Of a DNA stretch of 13,926 nucleotides, positions 6,642 through 13,926 are shown piece by piece. The notes beneath the pieces were generated by a model that was not told the DNA's origin, ran no database searches, and worked only from the letters and a program-made list of their open reading frames with translations. Made by a program: the position numbers and the translations under genes. The number at the start of each line of letters is the position of its first letter. The first letter of the stretch is position 1. The stretch comes from a virus (lineage: Duplodnaviria > Heunggongvirae > Uroviricota > Caudoviricetes): the IMG/VR virus record IMGVR_UViG_2529292830_000019; one strand, 5' to 3'.

Positions 6642-6890
6642 TTATTGTTTCACTGGCTCCCGCATTCTGCGTCTTATTTTCCACAAATATTCGATCATCG
6701 CTTCCACCTGCTCACGGTTGGTTGCGAAAATTTCCCCGGTCAGTGAGCTACGCAGAAAATCATGATGATCCACAAAAAATAACGCATCGGAAGAAAGCAA
6801 CCGACGATATTTTTTTGCTGTCGTGGTTTCCAGATCATCAAAACCATGAAGCTTTTTATGTTGCTGAACTTCTTCAAATGTCACTGGCAT
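6642..6890 (-). CDS. Hypothetical protein, 82 aa
   Basis: ATG at 6890 overlaps the upstream gene by 10 nt (coupled). No family recognised. Confidence 0.5.
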   Translation of the reverse strand: MPVTFEEVQQHKKLHGFDDLETTTAKKYRRLLSSDALFFVDHHDFLRSSLTGEIFATNREQVEAMIEYLWKIRRRMREPVKQ

Positions 6891-7411
6891 GTATCCCCCT
6901 TTGCTGCCCGGCGCTGGCGCTTGTGCTTCTCATTCAGCACCATCAGCCGTGTTTCTGCCTCCTGCTGTTCCTGTGGTGTCACTTCCCCACATGGCTGGCC
7001 TTTCAGGTCGTAACGTGCGCCACCAGCTATCAGGGCGCGGTAATAGCGCGGAGACTGCGCATAGGATGCCAGCGTCGCACGTAATACCCCCGACCCGAAT
7101 GCCAGCCCCCTGACGGCGATATCCTGCATCAGGTCGTCGAATATCCCCACCTTAAGCGGCTTCGGTGCTTTATGGCTGAATAAGTCAGGCCACATCTCAG
7201 TGAGGCGGTTAACGCGTCGGCGGTTTTTGCGCTGCCTTTTGGTCATATGCTGCCACGGTGTCGCCCCTGTGGGCTTCTGCTGTGCGTTCTGATTGCCGGG
7301 TATCACTTTATGCGCCGATGTGGTTTTATCCTGCTCTTGCGCCGCCTGCGTCGTTTTCTGCGGCGTGCCGTAAATGCCTTTCGGCTTCCGGTTAATGGTC
7401 AGCGTTGTCAT
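6881..7411 (-). CDS. FinO/ProQ-domain RNA-binding protein (RNA chaperone-like), 176 aa
   Basis: Basic N-terminus followed by WPDLF...KPLKVGIFDDLMQDIA...LRATLASYAQSPRYYRALIAGGARYDLKGQPCGEVT, which parallels F-plasmid FinO (WPGLF...) and ProQ (KPLKIGIFQDLV...RVDLDGNPCGEL). GGGGGAAGG RBS. Confidence 0.7.
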   Translation of the reverse strand: MTTLTINRKPKGIYGTPQKTTQAAQEQDKTTSAHKVIPGNQNAQQKPTGATPWQHMTKRQRKNRRRVNRLTEMWPDLFSHKAPKPLKVGIFDDLMQDIAVRGLAFGSGVLRATLASYAQSPRYYRALIAGGARYDLKGQPCGEVTPQEQQEAETRLMVLNEKHKRQRRAAKGDTCQ

Positions 7412-7447: not shown

Positions 7448-7873
7448 TTAAAACGGTATGTTATCCCCGTACGGGTCATCGTGCTGGCTTGTCTGTTGTT
7501 TTGCCCTGTTCAGTGCGTCAGTGGCCTGGCCCTGTTGACCTTTTTTGCCGCCCGGTCGCGCCGTTCGCGCACTGATTACGCTGTCTGCAATAACCTGCCA
7601 GCCCTGCCGCGTTTCCCCGTTCTGGCCTGTCCACTGGCTCACCTGCATGTTACCCGCCACGCTCACCAGTTCGCCTTTGTGGTGTTTTGCCAGTGCGTCG
7701 GCCTGTCTGCCAAACACCAGGACAGATAACCACATCGTCGCCGTTCCGTCATCTGCCTGGCTGCATGGCAGGGGAACCGCCATACTCGCCATCGCCATTT
7801 GTGTCCCCTTGCTGGTGGTCTTTAACTGCGGGTCAGCCACCAGCCGCCCGTAAGCCGCTATCTGTGCTGTCAT
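7448..7873 (-). CDS. ssb: Single-stranded DNA-binding protein (SSB), 141 aa
   Basis: OB-fold-like core (WLSVLVFGRQADALAKHHKGELVSVAGNMQVSQWTGQNGETRQGW) and an acidic C-terminal tail ending DDPYGDNIPF, matching the SSB ...DDDIPF tail. ATG overlaps the upstream stop (ATGA). Confidence 0.8.
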   Translation of the reverse strand: MTAQIAAYGRLVADPQLKTTSKGTQMAMASMAVPLPCSQADDGTATMWLSVLVFGRQADALAKHHKGELVSVAGNMQVSQWTGQNGETRQGWQVIADSVISARTARPGGKKGQQGQATDALNRAKQQTSQHDDPYGDNIPF

Positions 7874-8402: not shown

Positions 8403-10217
8403 TTAATTTTTGCTGTCGTCATTTGTGACCGATGCACATGATGGCATCCAGTCTTCTGAATCCTCTGTCAGTGTCACATTTGAACGCAAACCGTGCTTCG
8501 TTTTCCGTTTTATATACTCCCTGCCATATTCCGCCATTGCCCCCGGCATATCTTTACCGAAGCGCGTCAGTGTTACAGGTTTACCGAATCCGTGTGCCCT
8601 CATATATGCCAGATAGGCGTGATAAAGATACCTGCGCGGACTGAACGGAATAATTTCGGCATTACCCACTAACAGACCATCACACATTACCGACGACATG
8701 AGATAGCCACAGAAGTCCACCAGCGAATCGCCCTCGCGTTTTATCACCAGAGCTTCTTCTGATTTCTGCTGCTCATACAGCAGGCGTTTAGCTTCGTCCT
8801 GGTCAGAAAAACGAGTAAGCAGATGGCGAATCACAACCGCCAGCTCTCCTTCTATTTTTTCTGCCAGCATGGGGTCGCGCTCGTTCTCCGGTACAACCTC
8901 CGAAAAATTGAATATCACCCGACGACGTGAGATCCCCCCGCTGCGGTCACTGAATGACATGGCGTTATTGTTCACCGCCAGCACGACCGCCTGAATGCGT
9001 GTTGAGTAGGGGGCTTTATGCTTCGGGTCGATTGCCACCTTGTCACCGCCTGTAATGGCCTTAATTCCTGCGCCATCACCAGCGTAGCGGGTCATATCCG
9101 GCATGATAATCAGCGAAAAGCCAACCACTAACGCGCGTTCCCTTGCATCTTCCAGCGCCTTCATGCTTGCCGATACTGTGTTGGCCTTACCCGCCAGCAT
9201 AGTGCAAATCTCCGCCATCACGCTTTTACCACTTCCCCCTGGACCTGTTACCTCAATGAATAACTGCCAGTCGTACCGGTTCGCCAGCACCATGAATAAT
9301 GCAGCCAGCACGCGATCCGTCTTGCGGTCATTCTCTGCCACCGAGCAGCGTAACCACTTCCAGAAATTCGGCGCATGTGTTGCCAGCGTTTCCCCCTCTG
9401 CTGGTGGGCTGAAAGGTAATTCACTGGCAATTAACAACCAGTCGTTTTTGTTATGCTCCCGAAAATTACCTGTTCTGGTATCAAATACCCCGTTACTGAA
9501 TCCAATCAGGTTACGGGCTGTATTCCCCATTACAGGCAAACTTAACTTCATGGTATCGACCGCCGATTTAATGGCGTTCTGCGAATAGCTGATCTCCGCA
9601 TCAATGAAAATCTGCGCCATAGCACGCTGTAACTCTTTATCCTGAATCGGCTCCCATACAACGCCGTTGTAATGGTGAACAGTGTCAGAGTCGGCATGAA
9701 TCGCCAGTTCACCGCCATAATGTGCCAGGAGAACTTCGCCGCGCTGGCTTGCTCCCATCTGGTTAAGCGCCAGTGGTGCGGCGCTGTCTTCTGTTTTTTT
9801 CTTAACAGGAAGCTGAATCACCAGACCATCAGAAAGATTCTGGCGCTCACGGGCCAGATATTCGCGCCAGTTCTGCACCTCCTGACCGTGCATACCCTCA
9901 GGATAAAAATTTGCATCCTGTACGCCTGCCGCCGCCAGCTTCTGACCAATCGCCTTTATCATTACTGGCGCAAGATATCCGGCCCTGAATATGCGCACGG
10001 ATTTTCTGCCTTCCGGCACAATTTGCAGCTTATCCAGTTCGGATAACTGCTGCTCCCCAAGCCACACAGGAGGCTCATTATCTCCGGCCATACGCGCGTC
10101 ATGTTCCTGCCATTGTTTTGCGTGTGACCAGGCATCACTACCCGCAAAAATAATGACTTCTGTTTCTTTGTGTTTTATGCCGCGTGACTGCTGTTTTACG
10201 TTCGGTGCCAGTTTCAT
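8403..10217 (-). CDS. Primase-helicase replication initiator (P4 alpha / D5-type, SF3 helicase Walker A), 604 aa
   Basis: Walker A GPGGSGKS within a D5-like helicase region, with a primase-like N-terminal half. ATG overlaps the upstream ORF stop (ATGA); the iteron origin lies immediately downstream. Confidence 0.85.
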   Translation of the reverse strand: MKLAPNVKQQSRGIKHKETEVIIFAGSDAWSHAKQWQEHDARMAGDNEPPVWLGEQQLSELDKLQIVPEGRKSVRIFRAGYLAPVMIKAIGQKLAAAGVQDANFYPEGMHGQEVQNWREYLARERQNLSDGLVIQLPVKKKTEDSAAPLALNQMGASQRGEVLLAHYGGELAIHADSDTVHHYNGVVWEPIQDKELQRAMAQIFIDAEISYSQNAIKSAVDTMKLSLPVMGNTARNLIGFSNGVFDTRTGNFREHNKNDWLLIASELPFSPPAEGETLATHAPNFWKWLRCSVAENDRKTDRVLAALFMVLANRYDWQLFIEVTGPGGSGKSVMAEICTMLAGKANTVSASMKALEDARERALVVGFSLIIMPDMTRYAGDGAGIKAITGGDKVAIDPKHKAPYSTRIQAVVLAVNNNAMSFSDRSGGISRRRVIFNFSEVVPENERDPMLAEKIEGELAVVIRHLLTRFSDQDEAKRLLYEQQKSEEALVIKREGDSLVDFCGYLMSSVMCDGLLVGNAEIIPFSPRRYLYHAYLAYMRAHGFGKPVTLTRFGKDMPGAMAEYGREYIKRKTKHGLRSNVTLTEDSEDWMPSCASVTNDDSKN

Positions 10218-10501
10218 TTTTTACCCCCTGCGACCAGCATTTCACGAATTTTGCGGATATGACTTGCTGCACGTTTCTGATTTACGGCTTTACGATGGCC
10301 CACCAGCGTGAAATCACGCCGGAACTGATAAACAGGCATCACGCAGTCATATTCGTAGCCATCACGGCGGTAAGTGATGCGCCGTTCTGCCACGCCTTTT
10401 ATCGTTCCCGTGCCGCCATAGTTATCCCGGAAAATATCGCCGGGGCGGATTTCAGGCCGAGCGGGGCCGCTGGCAGTAAAGCCAGAAATTTTCTGTTTCA
10501 T
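10214..10501 (-). CDS. Hypothetical protein, 95 aa, translationally coupled to the primase
   Basis: ORF with ATG at 10501; its stop overlaps the primase start. No family recognised. Confidence 0.5.
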   Translation of the reverse strand: MKQKISGFTASGPARPEIRPGDIFRDNYGGTGTIKGVAERRITYRRDGYEYDCVMPVYQFRRDFTLVGHRKAVNQKRAASHIRKIREMLVAGGKK

Positions 10502-10506
10502 GGTTT

Positions 10507-10734
10507 TTATTCCGCGTTTATTTTTTTATCGTGAATTTCGATCGCTTTATTTAATTCGACGATTACCGTATCGAGTAATGAAATAAACGCACCAGCAAGA
10601 TTAGACTCACGCTCATCTTCCGGCGCATCACTTAAACCATCAAGCCAGATAAGAAATATTTGCCTCAAACATTCACTGTTAGTCAGTGCGTTTTCTGCAT
10701 GGCTCATTGATTTAAAATAACGGTCATCATGCAT
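10507..10734 (-). CDS. Hypothetical acidic protein, about 75 aa (alternative start at 10779 gives 90 aa)
   Basis: ATG at 10734 overlaps the upstream stop (ATGCATGA). The longer start would overlap the upstream gene by 53 nt. Confidence 0.45.
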   Translation of the reverse strand: MHDDRYFKSMSHAENALTNSECLRQIFLIWLDGLSDAPEDERESNLAGAFISLLDTVIVELNKAIEIHDKKINAE

Positions 10735-10963
10735 GGTGCGCCCCCTGAATATCTGCGGTAAGAATTTTGCCTGCTTCATTCAGCGCCATATCAGCACTAA
10801 GTTGCATAACAGCCAGTGAGTGAGGAACGAAAGCCCCGGCATATTCTGTTTCGCTGGTGGCGCGCTTATGCGCCTTGTCTGCGATAACAGAAATATCAAT
10901 CAACGCGTGCATCAGCGTTTTGATGGCTTCGGCGGCTGCGTCCGGTGTGGTTTTATTGTGCAT
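10727..10963 (-). CDS. Hypothetical protein, 78 aa
   Basis: ORF in operon context; ATG at 10963 overlaps the upstream gene by 11 nt. No family recognised. Confidence 0.45.
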   Translation of the reverse strand: MHNKTTPDAAAEAIKTLMHALIDISVIADKAHKRATSETEYAGAFVPHSLAVMQLSADMALNEAGKILTADIQGAHHA

Positions 10964-11159
10964 AGGTTTCCCCCTGGCGAATACGGGCAGCGAATACCAT
11001 CACGCAGCCATCAGGAGATTGCTGACGCGCTTCCTGTTCGCTGGTGGCCTCAATGGTAATCACGCGCGGTTGTGCCGTGCTCAGGGCGATAAAACGCCAG
11101 ATGTATTTATTCAGGTTGTACGAGTCCCGCCCTTGCGGGTGTCTGGTATAATTTCTCAT
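10953..11159 (-). CDS. Hypothetical protein, about 68 aa, first gene of the leftward replication operon (alternative GTG start at 11219 gives 88 aa)
   Basis: ATG at 11159 preceded by GAGGT with 4-nt spacing; a GTG at 11219 is also in frame. Directly downstream of the operator/promoter region. Confidence 0.4.
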   Translation of the reverse strand: MRNYTRHPQGRDSYNLNKYIWRFIALSTAQPRVITIEATSEQEARQQSPDGCVMVFAARIRQGETYAQ

Positions 11160-11258
11160 AGCTACCTCGATACGCTTTCTATCGTTGGTGGTTAGAAGCC
11201 CTGCGAGTGGTAACGACACTTGCGGGGCTTTGTCTTTTCATCGATTACCTTAATAAAG

Positions 11259-11339
11259 GTGTCAGCCACTATACTAGTGACAGGTGTCAGCCACGTCAAT
11301 AGTGTTTTTCTATTTTCTTGTGTGTATACTGTCAGCCAC
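11259..11339. promoter_or_regulatory. Divergent operator region: three GTCAGCCAC repeats (11261, 11286, 11331), palindrome TGACAGGTGTCA (11278-11289) and two TATACT -10-like hexamers
   Basis: Read directly. Repeats overlap the -10-like elements of both the leftward promoter and the rightward promoter for the RHH gene. Confidence 0.5.
11271..11299 (-). promoter_or_regulatory. Candidate leftward promoter for the replication operon (-35 TTGACG at 11299..11294, 17-nt spacer, -10 TAGTAT at 11276..11271)
   Basis: Hexamers read on the minus strand. The spacer contains a GTCAGCCAC repeat and the palindrome TGACAGGTGTCA. Confidence 0.4.
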
Positions 11340-11360
11340 CTAATAACAAGGAAATCAGAT

Positions 11361-11540
11361 ATGGCAACGAAAGCAGTTAATGGAAAATCCAAAAAACTTG
11401 AGGCACGAGTACCCCATGCAATAGCTGACGCTGTAGAAAATTTAAAGGAAGAAGGCGAAAGCACTGGGCAATTTATCGTTTCGGCGCTTGAAGGTGAGAT
11501 CAAACGCCGCCAGCGCCGGAAGGCCAAAGAGCAGGAATAA
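11361..11540 (+). CDS. Small ribbon-helix-helix (CopG/Arc-like) DNA-binding protein, 59 aa; candidate repressor
   Basis: ATG at 11361 with AAGGA 8 nt upstream. KLEARVPHAIADAVENLKEEGES...FIVSALEGEI fits a beta-strand then two helices. The upstream part of the ORF-track frame is probably not coding. Confidence 0.55.
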   Translation: MATKAVNGKSKKLEARVPHAIADAVENLKEEGESTGQFIVSALEGEIKRRQRRKAKEQE

Positions 11541-11597
11541 CCATCACCAGCGCCGTGGTGTAAGGTATTACGGCGCATTGCTATGCAGGACAACACA

Positions 11598-11771
11598 ATG
11601 ACCGATAAAGAATTGACCAAAACATTATCACCGACACGGAAAAGACGACGCAGAAAGATAGAGCATGAATCAGAAAGATTCGCGCCATGTGCTTTTGCCC
11701 TTGAGCAATTCCTTAAAGAGTACAGGGAAAAGCGCTCATTGCAGGTATGGCAACGAACTGAACCAGACTGA
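11598..11771 (+). CDS. Hypothetical small basic protein, about 57 aa (alternative ATG at 11583)
   Basis: ORF following the RHH gene on the same strand, with AGGA 7 nt upstream of the ATG at 11598. Contains a KRRRRK tract. Weak call. Confidence 0.35.
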   Translation: MTDKELTKTLSPTRKRRRRKIEHESERFAPCAFALEQFLKEYREKRSLQVWQRTEPD

Positions 11772-11837
11772 TTGCATTGCCCACCAGCCGCAAATGTGGC
11801 ATTGTTGGTGATGCTTTTGTTTTCCCTTGTTCTCACT

Positions 11838-11867
11838 GGCGACCCTTTTGCGGTCGCCTTTGTTTTG
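11838..11867 (+). terminator. Rho-independent terminator after the RHH/small-ORF unit
   Basis: GGCGACC-cttttgc-GGTCGCC hairpin followed by TTTGTTTTG. Confidence 0.5.
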
Positions 11868-11962
11868 CCTGTTATCCGGCAATTGTGGCGCTTCGCCACA
11901 CGGTTGATATAATTCCCCTGCACTGATCCATTTTTTTCGCAGCAGGTTAATTGTTCAGAAAG

Positions 11963-11990
11963 GCGGTTCCTTATCGGGGCCGCTTTTTTT
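11963..11990 (+). terminator. Second plus-strand rho-independent terminator
   Basis: GCGGTTCC-ttatc-GGGGCCGC hairpin (with G-U pairs) followed by TTTTTTT. Confidence 0.5.
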
Positions 11991-12131
11991 ATGCCTGAAA
12001 ATACCCGATAACATGGCTTTTTAGTTTCACCAGGACGAACGAAGCCCCGCCCCTGTTCGGGCGTATATCCAGTATTCATGGTTAGATCTCTGTGTTAGTG
12101 GATGGGTGGCGGCGGTGCGCCGCCAGCCTGA

Positions 12132-12320
12132 TTAGTGAACTGCCTCGCGGCTGTCCTTCCATGCCAGAACTTCGGATAAAGACCAGCCAACGGAACGACC
12201 GCCGAGTTTACGCCGTGATGGGAATTGTCCGGTCTTTTCCAGGCGATACCGACATGAGCGGCTCAGGCCTGTAAGTTGCTGACATTCTTTTTCACGTATA
12301 AAGCGATCTGTGCTTAACAC
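12132..12320 (-). CDS. alpA: AlpA-family phage transcriptional regulator (excisionase-like winged HTH), 62 aa
   Basis: IREKECQQLTGLSRSCRYRLEKTGQFPSRRKLGGRSVGWSLSEVLAWK matches the AlpA (Phage_AlpA) pattern. GTG start at 12320 with AAGGGGG 4 nt upstream. Confidence 0.85.
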   Translation of the reverse strand: MLSTDRFIREKECQQLTGLSRSCRYRLEKTGQFPSRRKLGGRSVGWSLSEVLAWKDSREAVH

Positions 12321-12349
12321 AATTCCCCCTTTGTTGTTTCTTAAAGAGT

Positions 12350-12400
12350 CATTGGGTGGATTATTGGGTTGGGTTGTGTCGGATTGTGTCAGGGTGTTTA
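12350..12400. repeat. Phased TTGGGT / TTGTGTC repeats (about 10-bp period) immediately upstream of alpA
   Basis: cattgggtgg / attattgggtt / gggttgtgtc / ggattgtgtc / agggtgttta. A possible alpA promoter overlaps it on the minus strand (-35 TTGCCA at 12411..12406, -10 CACAAT at 12388..12383). Confidence 0.45.
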
Positions 12401-12483
12401 TGGAATGGCAAACAGTGATGTGGTGTTCGTCGCTGAAACAGGCGCAATTAGAAAAAAACTATTTTGATTCATTTGGATACAAA

Positions 12484-12513
12484 GGCGTAAAATTCTGCAT
12501 TTACGCCTTTTTT
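12484..12513 (+). terminator. Strong plus-strand rho-independent terminator in the int-alpA intergenic region, with no annotated plus-strand gene upstream
   Basis: GGCGTAAA-attctgca-TTTACGCC (8-bp stem) followed by TTTTTT. On the minus strand the trailing U-run is poor (UUUGUAUCC). Confidence 0.5.
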
Positions 12514-12613
12514 ACATATTTTTAAGATTGATTCGCCAATGTACAAAAAAACAGTAAACCACCAGAAAATCAGACTTATAGGGAGTTAATCAGAAATAAT
12601 CATAGATAATCAG

Positions 12614-12676
12614 ATTTGTTCCAGATTGTTTGCCGTTGTTCGTCGTTGTGTCTCGTTGTTCCACGTTGTGTCCGTT
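12614..12676. repeat. Six to seven tandem 10-bp-phased repeats of (c)GTTGT(T/G)(T)C just 3' of the integrase stop
   Basis: atTTGTTCc / agATTGTTTG / ccGTTGTTCgt / cGTTGTGTCtc / GTTGTTCcac / GTTGTGTCc / GTTCtg, read directly. Confidence 0.6.
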
Positions 12677-12696
12677 CTGAAAAATCACGAAAAAAA

Positions 12697-13926
12697 TTAT
12701 ATTTCTCTGGCTATTGGCAGTGTGGTTACGTTTTCGTGAGTACCCGCCAGTATCTCTAACCGCTCTGTCCACATGTCCAGCGCATTACGTTTCGCATCGA
12801 GATAACGGGAGTGGTTATAGACTCGCTGCATCCCTGGCATCTGGTGAGCGGTGAGTTGTTCGACAATATGCGGATCCACGCCTAAATCGTTCAGCATCGT
12901 GGTAAACGTGCGCCGTATATCGTGTAGTGACCAGTGCGGATGGTTTAATTTTTTGTGCGTGAATCTGCCGTATTGCGACACGCTGGCTTCCTGTTTCAGT
13001 TCCCCGAGTAATAGTCCTGTGTGTCGGTTCTGCTCCACCAGCCGTGTGACGAACGGTAAAATGCTTTCCGGTATTGGCCTGAATATGGCGACCTTCGTTT
13101 TGCTGTGCTCCTTCGGTACTGTCCAGAGCATTTCCTTAAAATCCCCCTCCCTGATCTCCGACAGCCTCAGTTCTCCGGTTCGGCAACCAAACACAATCAG
13201 GAGGCGGATTAGTGCGCTGTAGTAGGGCGGGAATATTTTTTTATCCAGCGCCTGTAATAATTCGCCCAGTTCTTTGTTACTAAGCACGCGTTCGCTTATG
13301 CCCGGCTTTTTGCCAACGTCCACCACGTTGAGATCATCCAGAACGTTACTGACTGCGTAGCGACGTTTACGGCAGAACTTAAGCGCCTGTTTACACGCCT
13401 GCATCATGTGACCAGACGTTACGGGGGATTTTTTGCGTATCCGGTCAAAACAGGCCAGCCAGTGACGTAATTCGCATTTATCCAGTGGCATGTTACCGAT
13501 GTGCTGTATGACGTGATTATTCAGGCGACTTTTCAGGCATACATAATCGACACGGTTTTCCTTTCCGTGCGTTTCCAGCCAGTAACTGATCGCATCGCCA
13601 ACCGTTACGGGTTTTAACGCTTCCTGCACAGTGTAGTTCAGTTCATGACGTGGGTTTTTCCCTTCTGCCAGCCATGCACGACACTTTGCGGCTTTTTCCC
13701 TGGCTGCTTTAAGGCTCAGATCGGGATAGTTTCCCAGCTTCAGGCGTTCCGGTGTGGTATCCCTTCCCGTTCCAGCCCTGTAGGTGAAGTACCAGGTCAA
13801 TTTACCTGATGTTAAATATTTCACGCTCAGATTACCGCCATCGCTATAGAACGTATTTTTCTCCGCTGGCTTACCATAAAGTTTTCTTAACAATGTATCG
13901 TTCAGTTTGTTAAGCGCTCTGCTCAC
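12697..13926 (-). CDS. int: Tyrosine recombinase / integrase, P4/CP4-57 type, at least 409 aa; 5' end at or beyond the window edge
   Basis: N-terminal arm-binding-like region (LNDTLLRKL...GNLSVKYLTSGKLTWYFTYR...LKLGNYPDLSLKAAREKA) and a catalytic domain with HDIRRT and the C-terminal tyrosine region. The frame is open to the last base; the codon at 13926..13924 is GTG. Confidence 0.9.
   Translation of the reverse strand: MSRALNKLNDTLLRKLYGKPAEKNTFYSDGGNLSVKYLTSGKLTWYFTYRAGTGRDTTPERLKLGNYPDLSLKAAREKAAKCRAWLAEGKNPRHELNYTVQEALKPVTVGDAISYWLETHGKENRVDYVCLKSRLNNHVIQHIGNMPLDKCELRHWLACFDRIRKKSPVTSGHMMQACKQALKFCRKRRYAVSNVLDDLNVVDVGKKPGISERVLSNKELGELLQALDKKIFPPYYSALIRLLIVFGCRTGELRLSEIREGDFKEMLWTVPKEHSKTKVAIFRPIPESILPFVTRLVEQNRHTGLLLGELKQEASVSQYGRFTHKKLNHPHWSLHDIRRTFTTMLNDLGVDPHIVEQLTAHQMPGMQRVYNHSRYLDAKRNALDMWTERLEILAGTHENVTTLPIAREI

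Follow-up and report, generated by a model that had tools for sequence, protein, structure and literature searches.

The window analyzed here, a 13,926-nucleotide stretch of DNA deposited as IMG/VR virus record IMGVR_UViG_2529292830_000019, belongs to a capsid-forming phage-inducible chromosomal island (cf-PICI) of Escherichia coli. The four small open reading frames (ORFs) that it encodes on the minus strand, immediately ahead of a primase-helicase gene, fairly probably represent the promoter-proximal section of its early (replication) operon, with five translationally coupled cistrons under the control of a repressor, an antisense RNA and the activator AlpA. The analysis demonstrates the gene identities, the operon architecture and its conservation, the selection acting on the coding sequences, the strand-specific hairpin in the leader and the co-variation of repeated boxes in the promoter region with the adjacent YlcI/YnfO-family gene, whereas we infer all biochemical activities of the proteins and the existence of the antisense RNA as a transcript. 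The analysis puts names to two of the small proteins, reveals the RgdR-type virulence regulator as a constant partner of the satellite primase, and yields a comparative map of interchangeable cassettes together with two regulatory hypotheses, one involving a repressor with its operators and the other an antisense RNA.

Identity of the element

Over the 1.3-kb region that encompasses the small ORFs, the window shares 99.9% identity with an island of E. coli NCCP 13717, which measures about 14.8 kb and interrupts yifB. In that island, the Prokaryotic Genome Annotation Pipeline (PGAP) annotates an integrase, an AlpA-type regulator, a divergent YlcI/YnfO gene, an Icd-like gene, two hypothetical genes, a DUF4222 gene, a DNA primase, SSB, ProQ/FinO, the major capsid protein, an HK97 prohead protease, portal, connector, HNH, TerS and TerL. 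According to this annotation, the element possesses its own HK97-type capsid and packaging genes and no tail genes. The integrase, alpA and primase genes, all three on the minus strand, follow each other in the PICI order within an island of about 15 kb inserted at a chromosomal attachment site, as in the cf-PICIs, the gene set of which has been described in a preprint (10.1101/2022.09.08.507074). Given the gene set of the NCCP 13717 island, the element is a cf-PICI and not the P4-like satellite that an earlier note, made from the sequence alone, had taken it for; sid, psu, delta, epsilon/ash and a CI-type immunity RNA are not annotated in that island.

The same note had placed helper derepression and early control functions in the four small genes. 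Such a P4-type role, that is, epsilon-like derepression of a helper prophage combined with satellite immunity, would agree with the position of the genes, which resembles the left operon of P4, and with the C-terminal region of the primase, which matches the P4 family (TIGR01613), though below the cut-off. However, the element encodes its own capsid and terminase, sid, psu and delta are not annotated, no C4- or CI-type RNA was matched in Rfam, and the four proteins have no match among antirepressor families. Furthermore, related islands carry their antirepressor-type genes (BRO, AntA/AntB, Rha, Ash) elsewhere, in the interval from alpA to the operon promoter, and thus upstream of the promoter and outside the chain. 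Finally, induction runs in the opposite direction: in Gram-negative PICIs, the helper phage triggers the expression of AlpA, an activator, so that the satellite is induced by the helper and not the reverse (PMC6092414). AlpA-mediated induction by a helper, like packaging into small capsids to which helper tails are attached, has been demonstrated for EcCIEDL933 alone, and mutation of alpA abolishes cf-PICI induction (10.1101/2022.09.08.507074). Taken together, these features leave a P4-type function of the chain scarcely credible.

A chain of five coupled cistrons

The chain starts with ORF1 (10953..11159, minus strand), which encodes an Icd-like protein of 68 amino acids (aa) with an isoelectric point (pI) of 9.5 and begins with an ATG preceded by the Shine-Dalgarno (SD) sequence GAGG at 11168-11165. 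It is followed on the same strand by ORF2 (10727..10963; 78 aa, pI 6.0) and ORF3 (10507..10734; 75 aa, acidic, pI 4.6), both uncharacterized, by ORF4 (10214..10501; 95 aa, basic, pI 10.5), a member of the DUF4222/RgdR family, and, as the fifth cistron, by the gene for the 604-aa primase-helicase (Pri-Rep; 8403..10217), which contains the Pfam domains D5_N, DUF5906 and Pox_D5 and matches the DNA primase family phrog_864 (5e-193). ORF1 and ORF2 overlap by 11 nucleotides (nt; ATGCACAATAA), ORF2 and ORF3 by 8 nt (ATGCATGA), and ORF4 and the primase gene by 4 nt (ATGA), with a 5-nt spacer between ORF3 and ORF4. For ORF2, ORF3 and the primase gene, the SD sequence is a GGGGG run located in the last codons of the preceding ORF (ORF1, ORF2 and ORF4, respectively). 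Since every gene after the first starts at the stop codon of its predecessor or a few bases away from it, and these SD sequences are embedded in the preceding ORF, initiation at the first cistron would set the output of the entire chain, including the primase.

PGAP predicts exactly these four small genes in the 99.9% identical E. coli island. Accordingly, the operon of ORFs of 68, 78, 75 and 95 aa with overlapping stop and start codons that had been proposed from the sequence is borne out by the junctions, by this annotation and by the comparison across loci described below, and its coupling to the primase by the ATGA overlap and the SD sequence in the last codons of ORF4. Two details of that proposal have to be revised. 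The window chain contains no fifth small ORF, the number of small ORFs before the primase in relatives ranging from 2 to 7, and the chain begins at the ATG at 11159 rather than at 11219. The latter position corresponds to a GTG start that would extend ORF1 to 88 aa and was rejected because it lacks an SD sequence, differs from the PGAP start and is not kept in relatives. Likewise, an ATG start yielding a 90-aa ORF3 was rejected in favor of the 75-aa version on the basis of SD placement, the PGAP call and the recurrent junction pattern.

For comparison, we assembled 91 loci (the window, 6 E. coli chromosomal regions, 4 loci from other species and 80 IMG/VR contigs), walked the ORF chain of each downstream from the Icd-like gene and clustered the products; a scan of genome contigs with ORF1 as the single protein yielded 4 loci, and a scan of viral contigs yielded the 80. 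The gene order is constant throughout: the Icd-like gene is followed by 1 to 6 small cassettes, then by the DUF4222 gene (86 loci) and then by the primase gene. The cassettes are drawn from about 10 families, the relative order of which is always fixed, even across different primase types. The ORF2 family is represented in 51 loci and the ORF3 family in 65, always directly upstream of the DUF4222 gene, which is itself preceded by a spacer of 5-6 nt and overlaps the primase gene by 4 or 19 nt. The same junction types (-4, -8, -11 and +5/+6) recur across the loci. The median pairwise ratios of nonsynonymous to synonymous substitution rates (dN/dS) are 0.28, 0.41, 0.47 and 0.43 for ORF1 to ORF4, respectively, indicating that all four are under purifying selection as proteins, albeit a rather relaxed one. 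The recurrence of the same chain with the same junctions, these dN/dS values and the matches of all four products to profile families show that the chain is not a chance arrangement of ORFs.

When 50,697 GenBank phage records were searched with tblastn, ORF1 and ORF3 matched only a single 16,548-bp record, 'Escherichia phage vB_KppS-Ant' (LR881103.1), and ORF2 and ORF4 matched none. This near-absence implies that the four proteins are not ordinary phage housekeeping proteins; homology to such proteins, which had been named beforehand as the outcome that would count against novel functions, did not emerge from this search. The LR881103.1 record, labeled an 'induced prophage', is as long as a cf-PICI, and its Icd-like and ORF3-like genes overlap a primase gene; judging by its size and this gene content, the phage entry probably represents a satellite. 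Sequence-profile searches of the PDB with all four ORF families and with the YlcI-like protein produced only chance-level matches.

ORF1 is a homolog of phage P1 Icd

ORF1 matches the NCBIfam model NF033153 (host cell division inhibitor Icd-like) over residues 19-62 with 70.3 bits against a cut-off of 25 (1e-19), and PGAP names it 'host cell division inhibitor Icd-like protein'. Although plain tblastn of ORF1 at E <= 1e-3 did not reach phage P1, hhalign comparison of a profile of ORF1 relatives with P1 Icd (AF234172) yielded a probability of 96.9% (E 1.9e-10, 38% identity over 47 columns), and P1 Icd matches the same NF033153 model with 52.6 bits. By these profile comparisons, ORF1 is a true homolog of P1 Icd. 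Its most likely role is to stop the division of the host cell. The statement of the earlier note that none of the four products belongs to a recognizable family therefore fails for ORF1 (NF033153) and for ORF4 (DUF4222) and stands for ORF2 and ORF3, which match only PHROG families of unknown function.

ORF1 may additionally serve abortive infection as its toxic effector, a role that has been suggested in the case of a prophage-encoded six-gene locus of ECOR61 that causes programmed cell death upon expression of the phage gene orf24, the effect being abolished by removal of the Icd-like gene (bioRxiv 10.1101/2023.04.06.535777). Taken further, the analogy would make the whole chain primarily an abortive-infection or superinfection-exclusion module that is triggered by a phage protein and in which the Icd-like protein stops or kills the cell. 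The fast turnover of the cassettes between the Icd-like and DUF4222 genes, reminiscent of defense and counter-defense genes, would fit such a module, as would the presence, in some relatives (loci L021, L039, L044, L085 and L087), of a second cistron of 153-155 aa that resembles the Icd-like effector with the long N-terminal extension from the ECOR61 cell-death locus. However, the chain proteins match no defense model in PADLOC-DB 2.0 (the sole match, of ORF4 to PglX, is at chance level, with E 0.006 and 12.6 bits), the window contains only the short form of Icd, the ECOR61 locus was compared by its description, and the cf-PICI prototype does not interfere with its own helper (10.1101/2022.09.08.507074). 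We therefore regard defense as an unlikely primary function of the chain. The suggestion of a defense role comes solely from the analogy with ECOR61, and such a role would be compatible with our explanation of the region as a controlled replication operon rather than exclusive of it.

ORF4 and the primase-helicase

ORF4 matches Pfam DUF4222 (PF13973) over residues 16-67 with 84 bits, against a cut-off of 27. The only DUF4222 protein studied is RgdR (ECs1581), encoded in O-island 51 (OI-51) of E. coli O157:H7, which is an activator of the LEE1 promoter and a repressor of motility and binds to DNA without sequence preference, the phenotypes having been obtained with ECs1581 and C1493 (PMC3378721). 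The RGD tripeptide at residues 20-22 of RgdR has been reported to influence LEE (locus of enterocyte effacement) activation (PMC3378721). ORF4 is 57% identical to the O157 protein and has P20-G21-D22 in the corresponding position, other variants being CGD, IGD and HGD, and the RGD motif marks the variant of enterohemorrhagic E. coli rather than the Pfam family.

The AlphaFold model of ORF4 (mean predicted local distance difference test score, pLDDT, 72.6; 87-89 in the core) consists of an SH3-like barrel with five strands and, after it, a basic helix. A Foldseek search of the PDB with this model returned nothing at E <= 0.001 and only weak matches to KOW domains, and for this reason we claim a fold class for ORF4 and not a family. 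With its predicted KOW/Tudor-like barrel and basic helix, ORF4 may be a nucleic-acid- or RNA-polymerase-associated modulator, by analogy with RgdR, and may assist the primase, its constant coupling partner. The primase-helicases of the compared loci come in types of about 470, 600 and 710 aa (the last being the DUF927 type) that have no more in common than their N-terminal domain, about 140 aa long (phrog_2850, function unknown). The location of the DUF4222 gene directly upstream of the primase gene in 86 of the 91 loci hints at a functional link between DUF4222 and this shared N-terminal domain.

ORF2 and ORF3 are satellite-specific cassettes

ORF2 matches phrog_5146 and phrog_2512, and ORF3 matches phrog_2196, all three of unknown function; these PHROG families are limited to enterobacterial satellites, and neither protein has a match in Pfam, NCBIfam, PADLOC or the PDB. 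ORF2 matches 217 protein clusters, and all named sources among the 120 matches listed are Escherichia (E. coli with the exception of one E. albertii). In an exhaustive HMMER search of 1.84 billion sequences, ORF3 found about five small-protein cluster representatives, and its family comprises 8 clusters at 90% identity; the other HMMER matches, to long repeat proteins with many short matches, are regarded as spurious. Members of the ORF3 family are 19-38% identical to the ORF3 of the window. The AlphaFold2 model of ORF2 is one long helix spanning residues 8-77 (pLDDT 75, predicted template modeling score 0.35), which is unusable for a fold search. An origin of the cassettes by duplication and divergence from one another was rejected for the ORF2/ORF3 pair, the hhalign probability of the family-versus-family comparison being 0.9%.

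Given their small size, variable number (1 to 6 cassettes) and poor conservation, exemplified by the 19-38% identity within the ORF3 family, ORF2 and ORF3 might be considered mere translated spacers that pass ribosomes on to the primase gene and encode functionless products. Yet their dN/dS values of 0.41 and 0.47 indicate purifying selection on the amino acid sequences, the families recur in a fixed order across primase types, and conserved helical patterns can be seen, all of which renders the spacer explanation very improbable. Rather, the helical ORF2 and the acidic ORF3 are interchangeable accessory cassettes that probably bind host or helper proteins, and these satellite-specific proteins remain candidates for new host- or phage-directed activities.

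The promoter, its repeated boxes and the divergent YlcI/YnfO gene

The location of the operon directly downstream of a promoter and operator region, already noted from the sequence, is supported by a predicted sigma-70-like promoter on the minus strand (11271..11299; -35 TTGACG at 11299-11294, a 17-nt spacer and -10 TAGTAT at 11276-11271; 9/12 in a consensus scan) and by three exact GTGGCTGACA boxes. Transcription of the operon would start near 11264, which would leave a 5' untranslated region (5'UTR) about 105 nt long. On the minus strand, the boxes, which we consider putative operators, are located at 11269-11260, over the operon start site, at 11294-11285, abutting the -35 element, and at 11339-11330, at the -10 element and start of a divergent ylcI-like gene; elsewhere in the window, no further copy was found without a mismatch. 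The divergent gene (11361..11540, plus strand) encodes a 59-aa protein (pI 9.5) of the YlcI/YnfO family (NCBIfam NF041551, 4e-17; phrog_949) and is present, about 190-205 nt upstream and in the divergent orientation, in nearly all loci.

Across about 90 loci, the sequence of the repeated box is predicted by the variant of the YlcI/YnfO gene, whereas the AlpA variants are shuffled independently. The box GTGGCTGAC is present only where the YlcI/YnfO gene is 98-100% identical to that of the window, and other boxes accompany genes of lower identity, among them GTGGGCCAC at 64-66%, GTGTTCAAC at 61-63%, GTGTGTTTC at 47-49% and GCGCACACA at 32%. From this co-variation, we infer that the YlcI/YnfO protein is an operator-binding repressor of the operon and of itself: it probably binds the three GTGGCTGACA boxes and thereby represses both the operon promoter and its own. 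Together, the protein, possibly a ribbon-helix-helix one, and the boxes suggest a so far unrecognized repressor/operator module in Gram-negative PICIs. A search of the literature on YlcI/YnfO function and on follow-up work on RgdR retrieved nothing further.

Just downstream of the predicted operon start and before the terminator hairpin described below, the leader contains the palindrome ACCTT-N4-AAGGT (11245-11262). In many relatives it takes the form CACCTTG-N6-CAAGGTG, and its position is kept while the flanking boxes differ. This palindrome could be a second protein-binding site, for instance for AlpA.

A putative antisense RNA covering the ORF1 leader

The operon 5'UTR contains the strongest terminator-like site of the region, a hairpin at 11195-11231 followed by the tail GTCTTTTCAT. 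It is read on the plus strand, and no plus-strand gene lies upstream of it. Together with an adjoining stem-loop (SL1, 11159-11194; inner stem 11168-11172/11180-11184, loop 11173-11179), it would make up a cis-antisense RNA of about 82 nt (11158..11242, plus strand) complementary to the start codon, SD sequence and 5'UTR of ORF1. The 85-nt stretch 11158-11242 folds into two stem-loops with a minimum free energy of -40.1 kcal/mol (z -6.0). Between most of the related islands, the homology runs through ORF1 and its leader and ends at 11239, at the end of the T-rich tail. The hairpin is present in all 49 distinct variants (49/49), with differing upper-stem sequences, and compensatory double changes affect 9 of its 14 stem pairs when 21 sequences, with Shigella, Klebsiella and Tenebrionibacter among them, are aligned. 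In SL1, the 5-bp stem CGAUA/UAUCG is invariant. Its 7-nt loop, by contrast, takes 10 different forms in 84 loci, although the 72 nt around it hardly vary.

These structures might instead act on the sense mRNA, as a stabilizer, a processing site or a device that sequesters the SD sequence, with no antisense RNA involved. In favor of this possibility, SL1 also forms in the mRNA, where it includes the first G of the SD sequence, and the antisense RNA is a prediction, its candidate -10 element being located in coding sequence and lacking a -35 partner. The strand on which the hairpin is selected can, however, be decided from the wobble pairs, because the G-U pairs of the plus strand become C-A mismatches in the mRNA. 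As plus-strand RNA, the stem contains 41 G-U cells and 95.9% of the alignment cells are paired; as mRNA, it has no G-U cells (0) and 81.8% are paired, with 18% of the pair positions unpaired and a C-A mismatch in 8 of the 21 sequences at each of two internal pairs. Moreover, the free energy in the sense orientation is 5-12 kcal/mol weaker for nearly all of the 49 variants, a U-rich tail is present on the plus strand only, and there is no upstream plus-strand gene that would need a terminator. An action on the sense mRNA thus appears rather doubtful to us, and selection of the hairpin on the plus strand, as part of an antisense RNA, remains the preferred explanation.

A candidate promoter for such an RNA is a perfect extended -10 element, TGgTATAAT (11144..11152, plus strand), which lies inside codons 3-6 of ORF1, 6-8 nt before the complement of its start codon, and has no -35 element. 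Close relatives carry TGGTATGAT there; distant ones carry GGTATATGAT or GGTATGCT and so keep GGTAT(A/G), with its spacing to the start codon unchanged. In Rfam, no family attained its gathering threshold over the whole window; this search and one of positions 10100-12700 at E <= 5 detected no C4, FinP, CI-type or other antisense family, and no report of a small RNA in OI-51 was found in a literature search. These data suggest a so far undescribed antisense RNA of about 82 nt that would cover the ORF1 ribosome-binding site (RBS). By analogy with the plasmid system discussed below, the ProQ/FinO-family protein of the island is a possible partner of this RNA.

A model for the control of the operon

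The proposed mechanism can be outlined as follows. A single mRNA starting near 11264 would carry the Icd-like gene, ORF2, ORF3, the DUF4222/RgdR-like gene and the primase-helicase gene as one coupled chain. In the quiescent island, the YlcI/YnfO protein bound to the GTGGCTGACA boxes over the -35 element, the start site and its own promoter would repress transcription, and the plus-strand RNA of about 82 nt would pair with the SD sequence and start codon of ORF1 and block its translation, possibly with the aid of the ProQ/FinO protein. A helper phage, acting through AlpA, would switch the island on, as has been shown for related PICIs. After release, the primase-helicase would replicate the island, the Icd-like protein would halt host division, ORF2 and ORF3 would bind host or helper proteins, and ORF4 would be a modulator of the RgdR type.

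Several points weigh against this reading. The promoter, the start sites and the antisense RNA of this island are predictions from sequence, and the candidate antisense promoter, which has no -35 element, sits in coding sequence, so that its conservation could reflect constraint on the protein. The boxes and ylcI are about 100 bp apart, and physical linkage alone could produce their co-variation; no Pfam or PDB match supports the ribbon-helix-helix fold. The island of O157 keeps the hairpin and has PerC in the ProQ/FinO slot, which means that the chaperone would not be obligatory. As for the proteins, the identity of ORF1 to P1 Icd is just 38% over 47 columns, the single-helix model of ORF2 offers no functional hint, and ORF4 carries PGD in place of RGD.

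A broader hypothesis, which we advance tentatively and to which we would give somewhat less than an even chance, is that Gram-negative PICIs and cf-PICIs in general carry a lineage-specific immunity layer. This layer would consist of a YlcI/YnfO repressor with its co-varying boxes and a FinP-like antisense RNA of about 82 nt with a private 7-nt loop. The RNA would shut off the Icd-like cistron and, through coupling, the primase, with the ORF2 and ORF3 cassettes serving as new effectors, aimed at the host or the helper, that are freed on induction only. Parts of the 1.3-kb region were detected in 1788 of 5426 complete E. coli genomes, in up to 8 places per genome. Co-residence of related islands is therefore common, which would provide a selective reason for lineage-specific operators and antisense loops. 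The cf-PICIs are widespread vehicles of gene transfer in Enterobacteriaceae, and the silencing and release of their replication are known only in terms of activation by AlpA. If the repressor and antisense layer proves true, it would bear on whether Gram-negative PICIs possess any repression system, a question left unclear in PMC6092414.

Other genes of the window

The tyrosine integrase gene (12697..13926, minus strand), identified from the ORF list and the PGAP annotation of the identical island, occupies one end of the window, which coincides with its GTG start codon. The alpA gene (12132..12320, minus strand) encodes a 62-aa protein (Pfam Phage_AlpA, 2.7e-18), and its role as a PICI activator is taken from PMC6092414 and the cf-PICI preprint. 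At the other side of the primase gene are the SSB gene (7448-7873) and, downstream of it, the gene for the ProQ/FinO-family RNA chaperone (6881..7411, minus strand; Pfam PF04352, 4.6e-24, and PGAP name). The YlcI/YnfO gene is followed on the plus strand by a second small gene (11598-11771) for a 57-aa protein (phrog_21027) with a very basic N-terminal half; this gene stops before a good plus-strand terminator (11838-11858) and converges on alpA. A 295-aa ORF on the minus strand (11192-12079) spans the promoter and both divergent genes, was not called by PGAP and is considered spurious.

Comparison with known systems

The left operon of P4 comprises kil, eta, the cI RNA, epsilon, orf151 and alpha. 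Like that operon, the chain described here places small early genes before a primase-helicase gene in one transcription unit with predicted RNA-level control in the leader. Unlike in P4, the switch is of the AlpA type and the element has capsid genes of its own, and no homology was detected for the small genes.

The FinP/FinO system of F-like plasmids employs an antisense RNA of about 80 nt with two stem-loops, which is complementary to the first gene of an operon in its 5'UTR and RBS. The predicted antisense RNA and the ProQ/FinO gene of the island form an arrangement that resembles this system: the putative RNA also has two stem-loops, the second of which is a terminator with a U tail, and the same element encodes a ProQ/FinO protein. 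In contrast to FinP, there is no sequence or Rfam similarity, the target would be a satellite replication operon rather than traJ, and some relatives lack a ProQ/FinO gene.

The immI region of P1 (c4 - icd - ant1/ant2) offers a parallel at the level of genes. According to the annotation of P1 (AF234172), icd comes first in the operon and shares an ATGA overlap with ant1, expression of ant depends on it, and the C4 RNA acts on its RBS. Here too, a short Icd gene is the first cistron and its stop overlaps the next start, by 11 nt instead of the ATGA of P1. In P1, the antisense RNA blocks the RBS of icd and thereby the downstream gene, and we propose the same logic for the island. The C4 RNA, however, is released by cleavage of the same transcript and acts in trans by pairing with short sites, whereas the RNA proposed here would be encoded in cis by the opposite strand. 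The cargo that follows also differs, being an antirepressor in P1 and a primase-helicase in the island, and no Rfam C4 match was obtained in the island.

In the ECOR61 locus, as in the island, an Icd-like gene is linked to several small genes and a DNA primase gene, and the product of the Icd-like gene has been proposed as effector there. The long N-terminal extension of that protein is absent from ORF1.

A close counterpart is OI-51 of E. coli O157:H7 (CP-933C/Sp7, at roxA-phoQ), the prototypical cf-PICI, which encodes RgdR (ECs1581). The two islands differ in integration site and primase, with yifB and a 604-aa protein here and roxA-phoQ and a 710-aa protein of the DUF927 type in O157, and in their middle cassettes, of which there are two here and three unrelated ones in O157. 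In addition, the divergent YlcI/YnfO gene of our island contrasts with a co-directional 247-aa gene in O157, and ProQ/FinO with PerC. The 99-aa DUF4222 gene of O157, with RGD at 20-22, lies directly before the primase gene, in the same slot as ORF4. The island described here shares with O157 OI-51 and with the classical PICIs EcCICFT073 (C1493) and EcCIED1a (ECED1_1787), in which AlpA-dependent induction has been shown as it has for the O157 element, the succession of int, alpA, an Icd-like gene, small ORFs, a DUF4222 gene overlapping the primase gene, SSB and a capsid/terminase module.

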